From the NCBI GenBank assembly GCA_965237465.1, contig OZ250138.1, positions 1,340,110-1,404,109 on the forward strand: DNA of 64,000 nucleotides, read 5' to 3'. The notes under the pieces are model-generated. The model saw only the letters and a list, made by a program, of their open reading frames with translations. It did no database searches and was not told where the DNA came from. Both the position numbers and the translations under genes were made by a program. Positions within the stretch are counted from its first letter, which is position 1. The number at the start of each line of letters is the position of its first letter. Positions 1,041 through 37,022 of this stretch are shown here, piece after piece. Source of the DNA: Dehalococcoidia bacterium (lineage in GTDB: Bacteria; Chloroflexota; Dehalococcoidia; UBA6926).

Positions 1041-1445
1041 TCAGCCAAAAGGCCATATGCCAAGAATCCAGAACAGTACGCCGATGACAGGAAGCCATAT
1101 CGTGGCGATAACACCCCACCCTAAGGGGGGATATCTTCCTGTAAATGCGAATCGGAGAGTAAAGTGTAGTTCGTCAATTATTCTGCCGGCAGGCAAGAAC
1201 AATAGCCAAGTCCAAAAAGACGCATCGAATGATATTGCCAATCCTAGGGCAAGTCCACTCAATAGACCAGCCACGATCCATCCACCCGCTATGGACTGCT
1301 GGTGCAACTCTGAGCCCGAAGCCATACTGCCGCTCTCTAGCTGGGCATTAACTCGGACTGCCAGTGAGCCAAAAATCAGAGCAACTAGCACACCAGCGAC
1401 GAGTCCGCCAACAGTGCTTCCTATCACAACAAGAGCAGCTATCAT
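1041..1445 (-). CDS. hypothetical small integral membrane protein (lower-GC segment)
   Basis: 134-aa ORF, almost entirely hydrophobic (3-4 predicted TM helices). Its ATG overlaps the queG stop as ATGA (1442-1445), suggesting translational coupling. The competing + strand ORF 979..1629 is Pro/Ser-rich low complexity. Confidence 0.45.
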   Translation of the reverse strand: MIAALVVIGSTVGGLVAGVLVALIFGSLAVRVNAQLESGSMASGSELHQQSIAGGWIVAGLLSGLALGLAISFDASFWTWLLFLPAGRIIDELHFTLRFAFTGRYPPLGWGVIATIWLPVIGVLFWILGIWPFG

Positions 1446-2637
1446 AATGAGTGCGTTCTATCCGCCTTCGCCAACGCTGCCGCAATCTCCTCCAGCGCCG
1501 ACGTATCAGCCTCTGCCAGGCTCGCGGCCTCAAGCGCCGCGACCGCATCCGCCGTCCCAATGCGCCCCAGCGCCCATGCGGCGTGACCTCGCACAATTGG
1601 CGAGTCGTCGTGGCGAAGAACACGCCTAAGAGGGCCTACCGTCGTCGGGTCTGCGATGTTGCCGAGCGCTACGCAGACATTCCGGCGCATCCCCGCAGGC
1701 TTGGCGCGGAGGACGGCGCTCTGCCGGAACCGTTCCCGAAAGCCGTCGTCATCAAGCGAGAGCAGCTCGACCAGCTCAGGCCTGGCGCGCCCTTCCGCAT
1801 CGCGCGTCAGCTCCTCGTAGGCCTGGCCCACGCGCGCCTTGCGATTCACGGGGCAAACATCCTGACAGATGTCGCAGCCAAATATCCAGTCGCCGATCAG
1901 CGGCCGCAGCTCCGGCGGAATCGCCCCTCGATTCTCAATAGTCAGATAGGAGATACACCGACTGTTGTCCAGCACATAGGGCGCGACGATGGCGCCGGTG
2001 GGACATGCCTCAATGCACGCGGTGCACGCTCCGCACGTCTTCTTTAGCGGCTCATCAGGCTGCAGTTCAAGCGTCGTAATGATCTGGGCCAGCAACATCC
2101 ATGATCCCTGCGACGTCAGGATGTTCGTGTTCTTGCCGAACCAGCCGACGCCCGCCCTTTCGGCAACGGCGCGGTCCAACATCGGACCAGTGTCTGTATA
2201 CCAGCGAGTTTGCATCTCGGATCGCCAACGATGCCCGGCAACGTCTCAATAAACGATTTCACGCGGCGCGCAAACACGCGGTGATAATCCTCGCCCCACG
2301 CGTACCGGGCGATACGGCCTCGCGGCTGAGTGCCCGGAGGAGGTCCGTTACCCTCCGTTGTAACTGCGTCATCGTCATGGTGATAGCTGAGCGCGAGGGA
2401 GATGATGGAGCGAGCATTGGGCAACAGGTTGCGCGGATCCGCCCCGCGCTCCACTCGTTCCTCCGTAAACCAGGGAAGGCCGTCCATGAGGCCCTCGGAT
2501 ACGCGTCCTTTTGCCGTCTCGCCACGATCGGAAAACGCATCGGCGGACGTCACGCCGACAACATCAAAGCCGAACTGCGCGGCGGCGTCCTTGACGGCTT
2601 GCGTTACGTGGGCGGGATCGTTGCCAGTACTGTTCAT
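1442..2637 (-). pseudogene. queG: epoxyqueuosine reductase QueG, reading frame broken by a 1-nt frameshift (pseudogene or assembly indel)
   Basis: N-terminal part (MNSTGNDPAHVTQAVKDAAAQFGFDVVGV...RIARYAWGEDYHRVFARRVKSFIETL) reads in one frame from the ATG at 2635-2637. The C-terminal part (RWYTDTGPMLDRAVAERAGVGWFGKNT...CGACTACIEACPTGAI...CDICQDVCPVN plus HEAT-like tail) reads in the -1 frame and ends at 1442. Restoring one base in the TTT run at 2209-2211 (AAA on the coding strand) gives an uninterrupted ...DPRCKTRWYTDTGP... QueG. Confidence 0.8.
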
Positions 2638-2659
2638 TAGTCGGTGTGGCATTCTGGAT

Positions 2660-3511
2660 GTGGTCCGATTATGCACGCTTGGGAGGCCCGCCGTGGTTCT
2701 GGTTGATCCTGGCGCCCGGATATTCCTGGTCAATGTCGGCGTCAACGCCTCGCACGGCGCCCTGCGCAGCCCCATCTTTCCCGACGGAACCTTTGAGTTT
2801 CTGCCCATCCCGGAGGAGCGACGGCTGTGGTCGCCGACGCTCCCCGCCTACCCCAAGCTGGCCGCGTTCAATGACCCCGACAAGACCCTCGCGGACTACG
2901 CGCCCGTTTCGCGGTGGAATGACCGCCTGCATGATGATCCCGAGTTTCGCACGTTTACATACGGCGACAACCCGCAAACAACGGGCAGAGGGGCCGGTCT
3001 CAAGCAATGCGGGCCCGGCGACTACATTCTCTTCCTTGCCCGTCTTGTTCAGCACGACGGCGAGGCGAAATTCCATGGCCCGCCGGGATTCTACCTGGTT
3101 GGTTTCTTCCGTGTGTCGGAAGTTCTGCAGGACGTCAAAGCCTTCCCCACAGGGCGGGAATTCGCCGTGTTCGGGGCGAACGCCCACATCCGCCGCGCCG
3201 CCTACCACCCAAAGGACGCGCTTAACCTCTTCTGGGTCTGGAAGGGTGATCCGGACGCCTCGCTGAGACTGCCAATGGCCGTTCCTGTTAGCCGCTCGTT
3301 GGCGGAGGCGACGCTCCTCGATGCGCGTGGGCGAGACTGGAAGTGGGATACCGGTCGCTCAGAGTTGCAAACCATCGGCTCCTACACGAGATCCGGCCGC
3401 ATGGTCATTGACCCAGCCGCGCCGGGCGGGAAAGTTCGGGCGAACCGGCTCTGGCGGGCGATCATCGACATGAACCCTAACGTGACCGTTGGTGGAAGAG
3501 TCGGGGCGTAG
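2660..3511 (+). CDS. hypothetical protein (possible PUA/EVE-like beta fold); start uncertain
   Basis: Long ORF 2402..3511 whose 5' part is antisense to queG. First plausible in-frame starts after the queG start are GTG 2660 or GTG 2693. No family recognised. Segments GDYILFLARL...GFYLVGFFRVSEV resemble PUA-like strand patterns only weakly. Confidence 0.4.
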   Translation: MVRLCTLGRPAVVLVDPGARIFLVNVGVNASHGALRSPIFPDGTFEFLPIPEERRLWSPTLPAYPKLAAFNDPDKTLADYAPVSRWNDRLHDDPEFRTFTYGDNPQTTGRGAGLKQCGPGDYILFLARLVQHDGEAKFHGPPGFYLVGFFRVSEVLQDVKAFPTGREFAVFGANAHIRRAAYHPKDALNLFWVWKGDPDASLRLPMAVPVSRSLAEATLLDARGRDWKWDTGRSELQTIGSYTRSGRMVIDPAAPGGKVRANRLWRAIIDMNPNVTVGGRVGA

Positions 3512-3581: not shown

Positions 3582-4502
3582 ATGTCTGCATTGTGCCCCT
3601 TCACCGTACGCGTGCCCGCCACGACGGCCAATTTCGGCTCTGCCTTTGACGCCATCGGCATGGCCCTTGACCTGTGGCTGGAGGCGCGCGTCGAGGAGTC
3701 CGCGACGCATCTCGTTGAGGTGCGCGGCGAGGGCAGCGACGCGCTCCCAGTCGGAGACAGGAATCTCATCCTCCGCGCCGCCGCATTCAGAGCGAACCGC
3801 CTCGGCATCAACCTGCCGTCGCTGCGTCTCACCGTCAACAACTCGATACCACTCACGCGGGGCCTTGGAAGCAGCGCAGCCGCCGTCGCCGCCGGACTCC
3901 TCATCGCCCAGATCATCGCCGGGCGTGACGCCGATCTGGACGTCCTGCTTGCCGATGCCTCTGAGCTGGAGGGCCATCCTGACAACGCGGCGCCTGCCCT
4001 CTTCGGCGGCGTCTGTCTCGCCATTCAGGCGGATGACGGCCCGCCCATCGCGAGGCAACTCCCCTTTCCTGACGGACTCGCCTGCGCCGCCTTTATTCCG
4101 GACGCCACGTTGTCCACGAGTCTCGCCCGCTCCGCGCTCCCGAAGCAGGTCCCCCTGCCGGACGCGACATTTAATCTCGCCCATGCAGCTCTCCTGGTCC
4201 GCGCCCTGATGACTCGCCAATGGCATGACCTTGCGCTGGCCACGGAGGACCGGCTGCATCAGCCCTACCGCGCCGATCTGGTTCCCGGCCTGGCCCCGCT
4301 CACCCGGGCGGCCAAGGAGGCCAAGGCATACACGGCGTTTCTCTCCGGCGCAGGACCGACGATCATGGCCCTGTCTGCGCCCGCCGATGCAGAAACCGTC
4401 GCCGCCGCTATGGGCGCGGCGGCGCGTTCTCTCGACATAGCGGGGCGCGTTCTGGCGCTGGCGCCCTCAGAGCTCGGCGCCCACGTCGTAGCGGAGTCGT
4501 AG
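3582..4502 (+). CDS. thrB: homoserine kinase (GHMP kinase family)
   Basis: 306 aa. GHMP motifs VPATTANFGSAFD and PLTRGLGSSAAAVAAGL. Immediately upstream of aspartate kinase. A perfect TATAAT hexamer sits at 3560-3565, 17 nt upstream of the ATG. Confidence 0.8.
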   Translation: MSALCPFTVRVPATTANFGSAFDAIGMALDLWLEARVEESATHLVEVRGEGSDALPVGDRNLILRAAAFRANRLGINLPSLRLTVNNSIPLTRGLGSSAAAVAAGLLIAQIIAGRDADLDVLLADASELEGHPDNAAPALFGGVCLAIQADDGPPIARQLPFPDGLACAAFIPDATLSTSLARSALPKQVPLPDATFNLAHAALLVRALMTRQWHDLALATEDRLHQPYRADLVPGLAPLTRAAKEAKAYTAFLSGAGPTIMALSAPADAETVAAAMGAAARSLDIAGRVLALAPSELGAHVVAES

Positions 4503-4507
4503 GTTCA

Positions 4508-5740
4508 ATGCTGCGCGTTCAGAAATACGGCGGCAGCTCAGTCGCTTCCGCCGATCACATCGCCCGGGTTGCGGAGCGCATCGCGCACGCCAGCGAGCAG
4601 GGCGACGATCTCGTCGTCGTCGTCTCCGCCATGGGTCAGACAACCAACCAGCTAATCGACCTCAGTCGCCAGATAACCTCCACACCGGAGCCGCGGGAGA
4701 TGGACCTGCTGTTGTCCACGGGAGAGCTTGTGTCCGGCGCCCTGCTGGCCATGGCGCTCCGAGCGCTCGGACATCCCGCCGTGAGCCTCAGCGGATTCCA
4801 GGCCGGCATCCGCACGGACACCCAGTACTCTCGCGCCCGAATCACGCAGATTGAGGCCCGACGCCTGCGCGATGAGATTTCACGCGGCAACATCGTCATC
4901 GTCGCCGGGTTTCAGGGCGCCACTGACGACCTTGAGATCACGACGCTTGGTCGCGGCGGCTCGGACACCACCGCCGTCGCTCTGGCCGCCGCCCTGGGTG
5001 CCCCGCTCTGCGAAATCTACACCGACGTTGACGGAATCTACACGGCGGATCCGCGCATTGCGCCGGACGCTCGCCGACTGCATGACATCGCCTACGATGA
5101 GATGCTTGAGATGGCCAGCGAGGGCGCAAATGTCATGCATAACCGCGCCGTGGAGCTTGGCTGGGTTTACGATGTGCCCATCCTCGTCGCGTCAAGCCTC
5201 GCCGATGAGGGCGGCGGCACGCGCATACATGGAGGAACGCTTATGGAAAATCGAAACAAGGTCCGCGGCATCGCCCATGACACGGACATCGCCCGCGTCA
5301 CGCTCCTCTCCGTGCCTGACCGCCCCGGCATCGCCGCGCAGGTCTTCTCGCCCCTCGCCGACGCCGGCATCAGCGTCGATATCATCGTCCAGAACGCCGG
5401 CCACGACGGGCTGAGCGATGTCTCATTCACCGTCACGCGCGCCGATCTGTCCGCCACCCTGACCCAGATCGAGGAGATCAGGCATGAGCTAGGCGCGGCG
5501 GGTGTCGCCGCAGATGAGCATCTCGCCAAGGTGAGCATCGTCGGCGCCGGGCTGACCAACTCCCCGGGCTACGCAGGCGCCATGTTTCGCGCTCTGCGGG
5601 ATGCCCAGGTCAATATTGAGATGATCACGACGGCGGAGATCAGCTTGACCTGCGTGGTGCGAGAGGATCGGCTGCAGGACGCCGTCCGCGCGCTGCACCG
5701 CGCATTCAGCCTTGAGACGCCGGATGAGACGCCGCTCTAG
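4508..5740 (+). CDS. lysC: aspartate kinase with C-terminal ACT domains
   Basis: 410 aa. N-terminal VQKYGGSSV, amino-acid kinase fold, two ACT-like repeats in the C-terminal third. Confidence 0.9.
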   Translation: MLRVQKYGGSSVASADHIARVAERIAHASEQGDDLVVVVSAMGQTTNQLIDLSRQITSTPEPREMDLLLSTGELVSGALLAMALRALGHPAVSLSGFQAGIRTDTQYSRARITQIEARRLRDEISRGNIVIVAGFQGATDDLEITTLGRGGSDTTAVALAAALGAPLCEIYTDVDGIYTADPRIAPDARRLHDIAYDEMLEMASEGANVMHNRAVELGWVYDVPILVASSLADEGGGTRIHGGTLMENRNKVRGIAHDTDIARVTLLSVPDRPGIAAQVFSPLADAGISVDIIVQNAGHDGLSDVSFTVTRADLSATLTQIEEIRHELGAAGVAADEHLAKVSIVGAGLTNSPGYAGAMFRALRDAQVNIEMITTAEISLTCVVREDRLQDAVRALHRAFSLETPDETPL

Positions 5741-6528: not shown

Positions 6529-7602
6529 CTAGAGACTCCGAGACCACTCGCCGTACAGTTCGTTGCAAGTACCCCCAAGCCGTTTGCGTAGACTGTCGTC
6601 AAAGCTCATTCCAGATTCCACGTCGTCTACGATTGCATTGAGATGCTTGAGCCCGTGTTTCGCTTCAAGTGAACGGATAAACTCGTACGAGGTGCCGTAG
6701 AACAGCGCGATTTCGTCTTGGTCATTTCCCAGTTCAAAGCTACAGAACTCGGAGCCTGGAAGAAGTTGTTGACGATTGATCCAGACCACCAAGCGATTCA
6801 ACGCCCTGTAATGGTACTGCTTCCATCCCGTGTTCTGGTAACGCTCGGCCATCCCTTCGTGAAACCACCGCGCAATTGAATAGAATGAAGTCTGCCCCAA
6901 CTTCTGACACCAAGTGGCATGAACCATTTCGTGCATTTGCGTGCGCGACGCCGGCGACTCTGTGTACATGAAGGAGGCGTCTTCAAGGGGAACACCGACG
7001 GTTGCACCGCTTGGCAAGCAATATGCGTGGCCGCCTGCGTATTCGATGTCCCAATTCTCCCTTGTATAGTGCCTATACTCCCACTCGTCGCGGAAGAGGA
7101 AGAGAACAATGAGTGGGCTGGAGTCTGGAATCAACCATTGGTCACTCAGCTCTTGACGAGCCCTTTCAAACTCGGCCAATGTGCGTTCCAGATCGGCGGC
7201 ATCAATAGATGGTGCATGTGTTGGCAAGAATGACTGGAGAGCAGCCTCTGCATCTCGTGACCTTGACTGGTGGTCGATAACTGTTGGAGCCATCCCTATT
7301 CCCAGAATCAGTAGGAGAACGACGAGCAGAATGAAGGTGGCCTTACGATGGCGATTCTTGACTTGCTCACCGGACAACTCGTCAGGCTCAGCCTTGAATC
7401 GGGCCAGGATGTTGGCTATTAGGACTGTTATGGGCAACGCTATGAGAGGCACCACGGCTGCCACAATCAGTGCGAAGCGAGGCCCAAGCGATACAAGATC
7501 AATGACTGCTAGTTCAATGAACAAAGTGACCAAGGCCCACCCGAATATCCACCGTATGGCCGACCAGAGCAAGGCGAGGATTGCACGGGCCTGCGATATC
7601 AT
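6529..7602 (-). CDS. membrane-anchored putative zinc metallopeptidase (HExxH...E)
   Basis: Start moved to ATG 7600-7602 (MISQARAIL...), with GGGGTG 10 nt upstream; the longer track ORF would overlap the divergent MTase. Two N-terminal TM helices, then HEMVH followed 24 aa later by HEGMAE (gluzincin-like). Local GC about 50-55%, below the window average. Confidence 0.6.
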   Translation of the reverse strand: MISQARAILALLWSAIRWIFGWALVTLFIELAVIDLVSLGPRFALIVAAVVPLIALPITVLIANILARFKAEPDELSGEQVKNRHRKATFILLVVLLLILGIGMAPTVIDHQSRSRDAEAALQSFLPTHAPSIDAADLERTLAEFERARQELSDQWLIPDSSPLIVLFLFRDEWEYRHYTRENWDIEYAGGHAYCLPSGATVGVPLEDASFMYTESPASRTQMHEMVHATWCQKLGQTSFYSIARWFHEGMAERYQNTGWKQYHYRALNRLVVWINRQQLLPGSEFCSFELGNDQDEIALFYGTSYEFIRSLEAKHGLKHLNAIVDDVESGMSFDDSLRKRLGGTCNELYGEWSRSL

Positions 7603-7752
7603 TGTCAACCTAGACACCCCTTTCCATCTCCCATAGTGCTGATAGATCATACATACTATAGAACATGTGTGGCAATGTCTGGAGCAGTTTGGAATTAAAT
7701 CAGCGCTCCCTTGACACCCTATCCGCGCCCCCCATCCCCTATCATTAGCGCC

Positions 7753-9516
7753 ATGACCACCCCACACACCAACAAACTCCACTTCGGTGACAATCTCCCC
7801 ATCATGCGGGAGCACATCCCCGATGAGTCCGTCGATCTCATCTACCTTGATCCGCCGTTCAACTCCAACGCCACCTACAACATCCTGTTCCGCGAGCGCG
7901 ACTCCTCAGAGTCCGCCGCCCAGATACAGGCCTTCGACGATACATGGCACTGGAATACGGATGCTGAATGGCAATACCAACAGACCGTGACTAAAGGCCC
8001 CCGCAGACTCGCCCAAATGCTTGAGGCTATGCGAACGTTCCTCGGCCAGAACGACATGATGGCCTACCTGACCATGATGGCCCCGCGTATGGTGGAACTC
8101 CATCGCGTCCTCAAGCCCACCGGCAGCATCTACCTCCACTGCGACCCCACCGCCAGCCACTACTTGAAGCTGCTGCTTGACGCGGTGTTCGGAGCTGCAA
8201 ACTTTCGTAATGAAATCATTTGGCGTCGGACTGGCACGCACAACAAAATACAGCGTTTTGCTCCGATCCATGACACGATCTTGTTCTACGCGAAGAGTGA
8301 AGCGTACCAATGGCAAAATATTAAAAGGCCCTACATGAGCGGTCATGTTCAAGAATACTTCGTAGAAGATTCCCAAGGGTGGCGAACCAATTACTACGGG
8401 AATGTGCTGACGGGGTCAGGCACAAGGAATGGAGAATCCGGAAAACCCTGGATGGGTTTCGATCCAAGTGCGAAAAATCGACATTGGGCAATTCCCCGCA
8501 GACTGTTGCAGGATGTGGACGAGGATCTGTCGACGCTATCGCAACATCAAAAGCTCGACCGACTTTACGAGTTGGGCTACATCAAGATCCAAGAAGGCCA
8601 AGCTTGGCCAGTATATGAGCACTACATTGCACCAGACGACGGTCAACCTGTTCCCGATATATGGGCATACCAGCCCTACACGGACGGATCGGTCTTTGGG
8701 AGTGAGAGTGGAATCGACGCAGATGTGCGTTGGCTGTCACCAACTGACCAAGAGCGCCTCCATTACCCCACCCAGAAGCCCCAGGCCCTGCTTGAACGCA
8801 TCATCTCCGCGTCCAGCAATGAGGGCGATATCGTCCTTGACCCATTCTGCGGTTGCGGCACCGCCATCGCCGCCGCGGAGCGACTGAAGCGCAAATGGAT
8901 TGGCATCGACATCACCCATCTCGCCATCTCTCTCATGCGCAACCGACTGCGTGCCTTGCCAGTGGATCGCCTGTCCGACTATGAGGTCATCGGATCTCCT
9001 GCGGACGTTGAGAGCGCCCGCGCCCTCTCCAGGGAGGGCGGCAACACGGGCCGCTACCTGTTCGAATACTGGGCCCTCGGCCTTGTAGAGGCCCTCCCCG
9101 CGCGTGACATGAAAAAAGGCGCTGACGCAGGAATCGATGGCTACATCAACTTCTTCGACGGTAAATCTACCAAGGCAAAGACCGTAATTGTGCAGGTCAA
9201 GAGCGGTAAGGTGGGCAGCAACATAGTCAGAGACCTTCGTGGCGCGATGGAGCGCGAACGAGCGGAAATGGCTTTGCTCATCACACTTGAGCCACCCACC
9301 AAACCCATGGAAAATGAGGCAGTCACCGCTGGATTCTACACGTCGGAAGCCTTCCCGGCCCTCCGATACCCTCGCGTCCAGATCGCCACCATCGAAGACA
9401 TCCTCACCGGCAACGGCCCCCAAATACCCCGAGGACTAGGCCTCTCCGAAGACCCCACATTCCGCCGCACCCCCCGCCAACGCCGGGCGCAGGGCAGTTC
9501 CCGGCGGATGATTTAG
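7753..9516 (+). CDS. beta-class N6-adenine/N4-cytosine DNA methyltransferase fused to a C-terminal Mrr-like (PD-(D/E)xK) restriction endonuclease domain
   Basis: DPPF motif (LIYLDPPFNS) near the N-terminus and a later YPTQKP...DPFCGCGT SAM-binding region, the order typical of beta-class MTases (PF01555-like). C-terminal about 120 aa (GADAGIDGY...VIVQVKSGKVGSNIVRDLRGAME...ALLITL) match the Mrr catalytic fold (PF04471-like). Start at ATG 7753 chosen by alignment with the paralog at 58395..59858. Alternative ATG at 7711. Confidence 0.8.
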   Translation: MTTPHTNKLHFGDNLPIMREHIPDESVDLIYLDPPFNSNATYNILFRERDSSESAAQIQAFDDTWHWNTDAEWQYQQTVTKGPRRLAQMLEAMRTFLGQNDMMAYLTMMAPRMVELHRVLKPTGSIYLHCDPTASHYLKLLLDAVFGAANFRNEIIWRRTGTHNKIQRFAPIHDTILFYAKSEAYQWQNIKRPYMSGHVQEYFVEDSQGWRTNYYGNVLTGSGTRNGESGKPWMGFDPSAKNRHWAIPRRLLQDVDEDLSTLSQHQKLDRLYELGYIKIQEGQAWPVYEHYIAPDDGQPVPDIWAYQPYTDGSVFGSESGIDADVRWLSPTDQERLHYPTQKPQALLERIISASSNEGDIVLDPFCGCGTAIAAAERLKRKWIGIDITHLAISLMRNRLRALPVDRLSDYEVIGSPADVESARALSREGGNTGRYLFEYWALGLVEALPARDMKKGADAGIDGYINFFDGKSTKAKTVIVQVKSGKVGSNIVRDLRGAMERERAEMALLITLEPPTKPMENEAVTAGFYTSEAFPALRYPRVQIATIEDILTGNGPQIPRGLGLSEDPTFRRTPRQRRAQGSSRRMI

Positions 9517-36643: not shown

Positions 36644-36720
36644 TGGAGGCGACGGCGGGATTCGAACCCACGAATAGGGGATTTGCAGTCCCCCGCCTTA
36701 AACCACTTGGCTACGTCGCC
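36644..36720 (-). tRNA. tRNA-Cys (anticodon GCA), CCA encoded
   Basis: Reverse complement GGCGACGTAGCCAAGTGGTTTAAGGCGGGGGACTGCAAATCCCCTATTCGTGGGTTCGAATCCCGCCGTCGCCTCCA. 7-bp acceptor stem, anticodon loop CUGCAAA, T-loop GTTCGAATC. Confidence 0.9.
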
Positions 36721-36788
36721 CTTGGCCTGACGCCCTTCATCCTGCGTCGCGCCTGCGCCCTGATTTTGCTGCCCCAATGTCCTGAGGG

Positions 36789-36875
36789 TGGTGCCGAGGA
36801 GGAGATTTGAACTCCTACGAGCTTTCGCCCACTGCCCCCTCAAGACAGCGTGTCTACCGATTCCACCACCTCGGC
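36789..36875 (-). tRNA. tRNA-Leu (anticodon GAG), long variable arm, CCA encoded
   Basis: Reverse complement GCCGAGGTGGTGGAATCGGTAGACACGCTGTCTTGAGGGGGCAGTGGGCGAAAGCTCGTAGGAGTTCAAATCTCCTCCTCGGCACCA. Anticodon loop UUGAGGG, class II variable arm. Confidence 0.9.
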
Positions 36876-36942
36876 TTGCGTCCGTATTCGCTGGCCCGCC
36901 CGTTGACGCGTTACGGAAACTGAGACAGGGCGTGCGGCGCGC

Positions 36943-37022
36943 TGGCAGGAGCGGAGGGATTCGAACCCCCGACCAACGGTTTTGGAGACCGTCGCTCTTC
37001 CGGGCTGAGCTACGCTCCTACC
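36943..37022 (-). tRNA. tRNA-Trp (anticodon CCA)
   Basis: Reverse complement GGTAGGAGCGTAGCTCAGCCCGGAAGAGCGACGGTCTCCAAAACCGTTGGTCGGGGGTTCGAATCCCTCCGCTCCTGCCA. Anticodon loop CUCCAAA. Terminal CCA not followed by an encoded CCA, so the 3' end is approximate. Confidence 0.85.

Follow-up and report, generated by a model that had tools for sequence, protein, structure and literature searches.

A candidate single-chain restriction–modification enzyme joining a beta-class DNA methyltransferase to a C-terminal Mrr-family nuclease domain

In a 64,000-nucleotide stretch of contig OZ250138.1 from a Dehalococcoidia bacterium (hereafter the window, with positions counted from its first letter), an intact open reading frame (ORF) at 7753..9516 on the plus strand encodes a protein of 587 amino acids (aa) plus stop, in which a beta-class DNA methyltransferase (MTase) is joined to a C-terminal nuclease domain of the Mrr family. 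The ORF runs from an ATG start to a TAG stop, and its product is identical to the public protein P0001; an in-frame TTG upstream at 7711 is a possible alternative start, but 7753 is favoured because the N-termini of homologues and the public gene call agree on it. On an evenly poised balance, we favour the reading that the gene encodes a self-contained, ATP-independent single-chain restriction–modification (RM) enzyme, which applies the logic of Type IIG enzymes to a beta-class MTase resembling the Mod subunit of Type III systems. Both catalytic signatures appear intact in the sequence, and the protein offers a single candidate for reading DNA sequence, an internal target-recognition domain (TRD). 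Slightly more tentatively, we propose that such proteins form an unrecognised class of single-chain, ATP-independent RM enzyme ('beta-type IIG'), in which a Type III Mod-like MTase is fused to an Mrr-family nuclease, which occurs in hundreds of species and in temperate phages, and whose TRD cassettes are naturally swapped.

The gene and its parts are as follows:

7753..9516, plus strand: complete ORF, beta-class DNA MTase with C-terminal Mrr-family nuclease domain (ORF list, Pfam)
7771..8322, plus strand: N-terminal part of the MTase (aa 7-190), comprising the motif IV region, a helical region and core strands (PF01555; 54-64% identity to 79 distant family members; structure matches to Type III Mod subunits and beta-class MTases)
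7849..7860, plus strand: motif IV, DPPF (aa 33-36), catalytic loop, invariant in 80/80 sequences
8323..8742, plus strand: central TRD (aa 191-330), a variable cassette of low identity and the lowest GC content in the gene (0.517)
8743..8967, plus strand: lobe binding S-adenosylmethionine (SAM; aa 331-405), with motif X and motifs I-III, the best-conserved segment (70% identity to distant members)
8839..8862, plus strand: motif I, DPFCGCGT (aa 363-370), SAM binding, with D, P, F, G and G invariant in 80/80 sequences
8968..9051, plus strand: conserved helical lead-in or linker (aa 406-433), with G414, P416, A422 and L425 invariant and a high-confidence AlphaFold2 helix at aa 419-427
9052..9417, plus strand: Mrr-family PD-(D/E)xK nuclease domain (aa 434-555; PF04471, predicted fold, Foldseek; 53% identity to distant members)
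9064..9066, plus strand: nuclease motif I, E438, on helix alpha-1, E or Q family-wide
9118..9141, plus strand: nuclease motif II, GADAGIDG (aa 456-463), holding D458-A-G-I-D462, the Mrr-specific D-x-G-x-D, with D458 and D462 near-invariant
9193..9201, plus strand: nuclease motif III, Q481-V-K483, with K483 near-invariant and Q or S at position 481
9232..9234, plus strand: D494, conserved as an acidic residue (84% D/E in 150 representatives) in the helix that follows motif III, by inference a candidate for a relocated carboxylate
9418..9513, plus strand: predicted disordered basic C-terminal tail (aa 556-587; confidence score, pLDDT, 33-38), with the consensus TFxRAPRxRR partly conserved in the family
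7603..7752, no strand: AT-richer divergent intergenic region of 150 bp (GC 0.49), presumed to be the promoter region

Domain assignment and the nuclease site

A Pfam scan assigned N6_N4_Mtase (PF01555) to aa 27-389 with 156.5 bits (E=1.3e-45; Pfam cut-off 26.7) and Mrr_cat (PF04471) to aa 450-523 with 33.4 bits (cut-off 21), which bears out an original prediction, made from the letters of the window, that a single polypeptide combines a beta-class MTase with a C-terminal Mrr-type nuclease. The motifs quoted in that prediction, DPPF at aa 33-36, DPFCGCGT at aa 363-370, GADAGIDG at aa 456-463 and QVK at aa 481-483, are all present, and the two features on which it had staked itself both stand: the Mrr_cat match at 33.4 bits, and the catalytic residues, with D458, D462 and K483 kept. 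The nuclease had been placed in the last ~120 aa; it is indeed C-terminal, but the domain itself spans aa 434-555, preceded by the lead-in (aa 406-433) and followed by the arginine-rich tail (aa 556-587), which may contact DNA or serve as a regulatory or degradation signal. Besides the MTase and the nuclease, the Pfam scan of the 587-aa protein found nothing, and no sensor of the winged-helix or SRA type was detected by it.

The MTase is beta-class because motif IV precedes motif I, with the TRD inserted between them as a block of 140 residues. PADLOC matched the protein with its MTase_II and MTase_III profiles only (MTase_III at 3e-38), and the equivalog models of NCBIfam scored far under their cut-offs, at 95.9 against 830 for CcrM and 97 against 292 for YhdJ (PRK11524). 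Searched against sequences in the PDB, the SAM-binding lobe matched M.BceJIV, CcrM, M.MboIIA and M.RsrI. Scans of the protein with Pfam, NCBIfam and PADLOC revealed no ATPase domain, for which 587 aa leaves no room, and the logic of the protein would thus be that of Type IIG or Type IIS enzymes.

A full-length AlphaFold2 model, built from a 44-sequence family alignment, reached a mean pLDDT of 74, weak in loops, in part of the TRD and in the last 30 residues, with the C-terminal domain at about 80-97; modelled alone, this domain scored 83 overall and 90-98 in its core. The predicted order of elements is a helix (carrying E438), a strand, a second strand that begins just past D462, a third strand (Q481-x-K483), a helix and a strand, and the modelled domain is a PD-(D/E)xK fold with its alpha-beta-beta-beta-alpha-beta core, so the check by structure prediction that had been suggested came out in favour of the nuclease assignment. 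A Foldseek comparison of the whole model with solved structures returned Type III Mod subunits as the best matches (6k0w; EcoP15I Mod, 4zcf), followed by the small beta-class MTases M.BceJIV, CcrM, M.RsrI and M.MboIIA. For the C-terminal model, MspJI (E=4e-4) and AspBHI gave the best matches, both through their nuclease domains, followed by BamHI, EcoO109I, EcoT38I, HamA, Can2 and Avs4.

In the RM enzyme LlaGI, the Mrr-family signature consists of a Glu in motif I, D-x-G-x-D in motif II and Q-x-K in motif III, the supplementary Asp of motif II sitting four residues ahead of the catalytic Asp via a conserved Gly (Smith et al. 2009). Mutations D74A, D78A and K94A abolish cleavage by LlaGI, whereas E38A and Q92A keep partial activity (Smith et al. 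2009). The equivalents of E38, D74, D78, Q92 and K94 in the window protein are E438, D458, D462, Q481 and K483, respectively, and we followed them in 120 close homologues (at least 57% identity), in 80 more distant members, three of them phage copies, and in 150 representatives of 50%-identity clusters. D458, D462 and K483 were invariant in 120/120 close homologues and in 80/80 distant members, and among the cluster representatives they were retained in 146/147, 146/147 and 145/149, respectively. Position 438 was E in 71 and Q in 49 of the close homologues, and E in 33 and Q in 103 of the cluster representatives. The only varying motif positions are thus 438 (E/Q) and 481 (Q/S), which are those dispensable in LlaGI, a pattern that one would not expect of a remnant domain that merely binds DNA. 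We read this conservation as pointing to selection for catalysis, short of proof.

Sites of the S-x-K type are active in Cfr10I, NgoMIV and SsoII, where the carboxylate has relocated to the following helix, and in Mrr itself E231 stands 10 residues past K221 (Smith et al. 2009). Across the 150 representatives, acidic residues are conserved at D494 (84% D/E, 11 residues past K483), E502 (91%) and E522 (97%), and all three are candidates for such a relocated carboxylate. Two close homologues, P0036 (500 aa) and P0071 (497 aa), end a few residues past Q-V-K in unrelated tails; they look frameshifted or truncated, so that an intact MTase may now and then be left with a decaying nuclease half.

An obligate fusion with an exchangeable recognition domain

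The architecture is not peculiar to the window: a protein search recovered at least 8,000 homologues, with all three Pfam domains (PF01555, PF04471 and the related NA-iREase1, PF22722) present in 117 of the 120 best matches, and a genome scan found family members in at least 596 species genomes. The phyla among the matches listed include Chloroflexota, Planctomycetota, Acidobacteriota, Alphaproteobacteria, Actinomycetota and Verrucomicrobiota; cultured hosts include Paenibacillus protaetiae, Sphingomonas koreensis and Mesorhizobium japonicum; and full-length copies lie on plasmids of Cellulosimicrobium, Mesorhizobium japonicum (pMLa), Bradyrhizobium, Rhizobium and Microbacterium. Public annotation describes the homologues only as '(site-specific) DNA-methyltransferase'. 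The family is therefore large and the window's gene an ordinary member of it, and what may be new is the functional class.

The C-terminal domain used as sole query retrieved 2,408 representative clusters at E <=1e-3, and in the best 150 of these the nuclease domain was C-terminal without exception (150/150). Among nine sampled shorter proteins, eight carried PF01555 upstream of the nuclease domain; we had considered these shorter proteins as other architectures and rejected the idea, as they are mostly metagenome fragments of this fusion that lack its N-terminal part, or MTases whose TRD is shorter. Within the best 150 of the 2,408 clusters and the sampled shorter proteins, this nuclease subfamily was never found alone or joined to other partners. 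The fusion of MTase and nuclease is obligate.

Conservation along the protein is uneven. Compared with 79 distant members, the window protein shows mean identities of 64% in the N-lobe, 54% in the helical region, 61% in the core, 70% in the SAM lobe and 53% in the nuclease domain, but 21% in the TRD (range 7-64%). When the TRDs of 197 members were grouped by average linkage on a pairwise identity matrix, they fell into about 14 groups at >=35% identity and 35 groups at >=50%, whereas the nuclease domains of the same 197 members formed one group. In 84 pairs the nuclease domains were at least 85% identical with TRDs below 35%, and in 2,463 pairs the TRDs were at least 65% identical with nuclease domains below 55%. 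The TRD type of the window protein itself recurs at ~70% identity in proteins of Paenibacillus and SAR202 with nuclease domains that are only ~49% identical to its own. The TRD therefore recombines independently on a constant catalytic scaffold. Specificity modules that recombine on a constant scaffold are a trait of restriction systems (Type I HsdS, Type III Mod, the MmeI family), not of regulatory MTases, whose target is fixed. Two pairs of copies illustrate the exchange within one genome: P0002 and P0046, on one 2.41-Mb contig, share 99% identity in the nuclease domain and 88% in the SAM lobe but 32% in the TRD, and P0084 and P0106, on one 1.89-Mb contig, share 92%, 96% and 26%, respectively; such a pattern suggests that the TRD was recently replaced or that the scaffold underwent gene conversion. 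No simple-sequence repeats of the kind that mediate phase variation in Type III mod genes were found in the gene.

The family also extends to temperate phages. In Marinitoga phage MPV1 the gene lies directly downstream of a CI-like repressor gene and is co-directional with it; in mycobacteriophage Amgine (gp37) it occupies the repressor's strand between the integrase and lysis genes, opposite to both lytic blocks; and in Streptomyces phage Hippo it abuts a serine integrase gene. Thus, in two of the three temperate phages examined (Amgine and MPV1) the gene shares the repressor's strand within the immunity region. These positions are typical of prophage genes expressed in the lysogen and would fit the exclusion of incoming phages.

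Our literature search turned up no published characterisation of this fusion family, although it missed much subscription literature and REBASE, so prior knowledge is possible. Two candidates were set aside: Haloferax HVO_A0006, an 'MTase-related PD-(D/E)XK protein', is unrelated and derives from part of an ordinary Type IIG gene, and the single-subunit restriction system gp28 of mycobacteriophage Panchino has a different architecture, described with Type I-like R, M and S domains.

Known systems and competing readings

If the protein is a restriction enzyme, the MTase would methylate the target of the TRD, probably at adenine N6 in view of the DPPF motif, and would thereby protect host DNA, and the tethered nuclease would cut at or near the site when the MTase/TRD module sits on an unmethylated target. 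By analogy with Type IIS, IIG and III enzymes, a pair of protein molecules or of sites would probably be required for cutting. A new specificity would come from exchange of the TRD cassette, with the MTase core and nuclease unchanged. The gene spreads horizontally, as one unit, to chromosomes, plasmids and prophages, and its prophage copies would protect the lysogen from other phages. Of these steps, nuclease activity, action on unmethylated sites, the need for two molecules or two sites and the role in defence are the ones that we infer.

No characterised RM subtype pairs a beta-class MTase with a C-terminal nuclease in this layout, so the claim that the protein falls outside standard RM schemes holds. 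Its logic most resembles that of the Type IIG/IIC/IIL enzymes (MmeI, BpuSI, Eco57I and the Thermus TspGWI/TaqII family), which likewise carry restriction and modification domains and a TRD in one chain without an ATPase motor; as in these enzymes, one TRD would serve both activities, and specificity would evolve through the TRD. By contrast, Type IIG enzymes have an N-terminal PD-ExK nuclease, a gamma (class A) MTase and a C-terminal TRD, whereas in the window protein the MTase is beta-class, the TRD lies inside it, and the nuclease is C-terminal and bears the Mrr signature (D-x-G-x-D and Q-x-K). REBASE annotates all Type IIG enzymes as class A (gamma-like) and all Type III MTases as class B (beta), with beta MTases present in Type II as well as Type III. 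The original description as 'Type IIG-like with reversed domain order' is accordingly favoured by the evidence as to logic, but the structural definition of Type IIG (class A MTase, N-terminal nuclease, C-terminal TRD) does not apply.

Other systems share single parts of the design. The Type ISP enzymes LlaGI and LlaBIII combine an Mrr-family nuclease motif with an MTase in a single-chain RM enzyme, and the pattern of essential and dispensable residues in LlaGI parallels the conservation in the present family; by analogy, LlaGI offers a precedent for an Mrr-family nuclease in a single-chain RM enzyme. LlaGI differs in translocating DNA and in carrying the nuclease motif near its N-terminus (residues 38-104), whereas the nuclease here is C-terminal and no ATPase domain is present; the motor of LlaGI is a superfamily 2 helicase-like ATPase, and its MTase is gamma-class. 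Type III Mod subunits (EcoP15I Mod; 6k0w, 7dsu) provide the likeness on the MTase side, a beta-class enzyme with a central exchangeable TRD, and shuffling of TRD alleles is known for Type III mod genes. Type III systems, however, need a separate Res subunit (helicase ATPase plus PD-ExK nuclease), whereas in the window protein the nuclease is fused and no res gene is adjacent. FokI-type Type IIS enzymes offer an analogy: their non-specific PD-(D/E)xK domain is attached by a linker to the C-terminal side of the module that reads the sequence, which would point to cutting next to the site and to dimerisation as a requirement. In FokI, recognition falls to a domain of its own and methylation to separate MTases, whereas the recognition module of the window protein is the MTase.

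The alternative that survives best, which we nevertheless regard as unlikely, is a solitary ('orphan') MTase in which the restriction endonuclease (REase)-fold domain plays an accessory part in non-specific DNA binding, dimerisation or positioning, a role like that of CcrM's additional C-terminal domain. Such a protein would carry out no restriction, and its methylation would serve gene regulation or shield a mobile element from host RM systems. A number of observations lean this way and weigh against a restriction enzyme. Every public annotation of the family is methyltransferase only, although cultured hosts carry members, and no restriction has been reported from hosts that carry them; characterisation of the fusion is lacking in the literature that we reached. 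The flanking ORFs are mostly housekeeping genes rather than defence islands, with unrelated defence genes scattered among them. The Pfam model NA-iREase1 (PF22722), of an 'inactive REase', scores on a par with Mrr_cat (aa 454-524, 35.2 bits; cut-off 27). Among diverse members, the motif I residue is mostly Q and about half have S-x-K as motif III, and these E-to-Q and Q-to-S variants could make catalysis weak or altered. Phages often carry orphan MTases, many phage MTases appeared among our search matches, and orphan prophage MTases can likewise adjoin repressors. In addition, no Type IIG enzyme has a beta MTase by REBASE annotation, and how a single-chain enzyme would avoid self-cleavage on newly replicated DNA is a difficulty for the restriction reading.

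Against the orphan MTase stands the retention, almost without exception, of D-x-G-x-D and K in about 350 sequences that span many phyla, which is hard to explain without catalysis. The S-x-K variants have active counterparts in Cfr10I, NgoMIV and SsoII, with D494, E502 and E522 available to supply the carboxylate, and the traits of NACHT-associated inactive REase 1 are not seen here, as D, D and K are kept and the partner domain is an MTase, not NACHT. Extensive shuffling of the TRD, and genomes with several copies whose TRDs differ, are a mark of defence enzymes, not of regulatory MTases with a fixed target, and the equivalog scores for CcrM and YhdJ lie far below cut-off. Taking these observations together, we still favour the single-chain RM enzyme over the orphan MTase.

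We consider it quite improbable that the gene is a selfish addiction or competition module, acting by post-segregational killing through a stable nuclease and labile methylation, or by degrading host or competitor DNA in phage development. The gene does occur on plasmids, in temperate phages and as a low-GC islet, toxin–antitoxin genes lie near one homologue, and its mobility as a single gene across phyla would suit such a life; yet this proposal is a variant of the RM reading with no distinct biochemistry, and many copies stand amid housekeeping genes without the hallmarks of mobile elements.

Least probable by our reckoning, and very unlikely, is a modification-dependent or 'mark-then-cut' defence protein that cuts foreign-modified or self-methylated DNA in a Pgl-like or abortive-infection manner, because, although the closest relatives of its catalytic domain, Mrr and the MspJI family, cut modified DNA, Pfam finds only MTase and nuclease, the same catalytic module serves the RM enzyme LlaGI and generic effector nucleases, and cutting its own methylation product would be lethal for a constitutive chromosomal or prophage gene. 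The original prediction had offered a modification-sensing protein as a candidate, on the premise that an Mrr catalytic domain implies cutting of modified DNA; the premise is mistaken, given LlaGI and the generic effectors, and the candidate lacks support, given that no sensor is detectable. The Type IV enzymes Mrr, MspJI and AspBHI do share a homologous or structurally similar catalytic domain with a D...QxK site, but they consist of an N-terminal domain plus nuclease without an MTase and cut only modified DNA, whereas the partner here is an MTase. That N-terminal domain is SRA-like in MspJI and winged-helix in Mrr, and it is there that modification sensing resides in both. Avs, Lamassu and NLR-related systems also use the Mrr-type catalytic module, as a generic nuclease effector.

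Should the nuclease prove active, thousands of genes annotated as 'DNA methyltransferase' would be complete one-gene RM systems that defence censuses miss, PADLOC scoring the protein only as an MTase, and RM classification would need a subtype with a beta MTase and a C-terminal nuclease. A modular TRD on a ~580-aa scaffold would then be an attractive, compact source from which to find or engineer new cleavage specificities, as has been done for the MmeI family, and prophage copies would give a lysogen a simple way to exclude other phages. If, instead, the nuclease is not used for restriction, a strictly conserved Mrr active site inside the MTase itself needs explaining.

Genomic surroundings and acquisition

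In the window, the gene is neighboured by a divergent gene for a peptidase-MA-like membrane protein (6529-7602, minus strand) and by a gene for a TPR protein, with aspartate kinase, glycosyltransferase and ABC transporter genes farther around. The absence of a separate R, S or Res gene nearby, as originally stated, was upheld among the neighbours in the window, and no specificity, Res or helicase gene was found among the called genes within 10 kb on either side in the source contig. Across the family, no conserved partner emerged when 1,299 flanking ORFs drawn from 81 loci were clustered all against all; the largest cluster was an ABC ATPase present at 14 loci at variable distance. Given that REases are too diverse for such clustering, we scanned the 144 nearest ORFs of 73 loci with Pfam and PADLOC, and found among them no recurrent REase, helicase/Res or defence partner; two of the 144 matched a Type II REase profile. 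One of these is a BglII-like gene in a Dehalococcoidia genome (locus L016, 6504-7112, plus strand), ~3 kb upstream of a family member, which probably belongs to a separate RM system. Two close homologues of the window protein (80% and 67% identical) lie amid entirely different neighbours. As the neighbours are unrelated and no partner is conserved, the gene appears to travel and work alone.

Composition sets the gene apart from its surroundings. Its GC content is 0.569 and that of the divergent peptidase-like gene 0.53, as against 0.65-0.66 in the flanking genes, and the GC of third codon positions gives the same contrast. The low GC, together with the 80%-identical homologue in a different context, are signs of horizontal acquisition. 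Together, the MTase–nuclease gene and the membrane-anchored peptidase-MA-like (HExxH) gene make up a low-GC islet of ~3 kb (6529-9516); the peptidase-MA-like gene does not accompany family members elsewhere. At the island boundaries we found no transfer RNA (tRNA) gene, no integrase gene and no notable flanking direct or inverted repeats. A scan for promoters and terminators gave nothing beyond chance, the lone consensus promoter match in the divergent region (7603..7752) lying on the minus strand.

A few further features of the window and of related loci were observed. In the genome of the 80%-identical homologue P0002 (locus L085), a 161-aa ORF without a Pfam match (4494-4979, plus strand) ends 22 bp upstream of the MTase–nuclease gene on the same strand, and the window has no equivalent of it. 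The same locus holds, at 222-1965, two HicB-like antitoxin genes and a BrnT/BrnA pair, less than 4 kb from the MTase–nuclease gene. In the window, three tRNA genes, for Cys-GCA, Leu-GAG and Trp-CCA, lie at 36644-37019 on the minus strand. By the gene table of the identical public contig, a gene at ~2693-3511 on the plus strand encodes a protein with nucleotide-modification-associated domain 3 (Nmad3, PF18754) and adjoins a QueG-like epoxyqueuosine reductase gene (1441-2652, minus strand).

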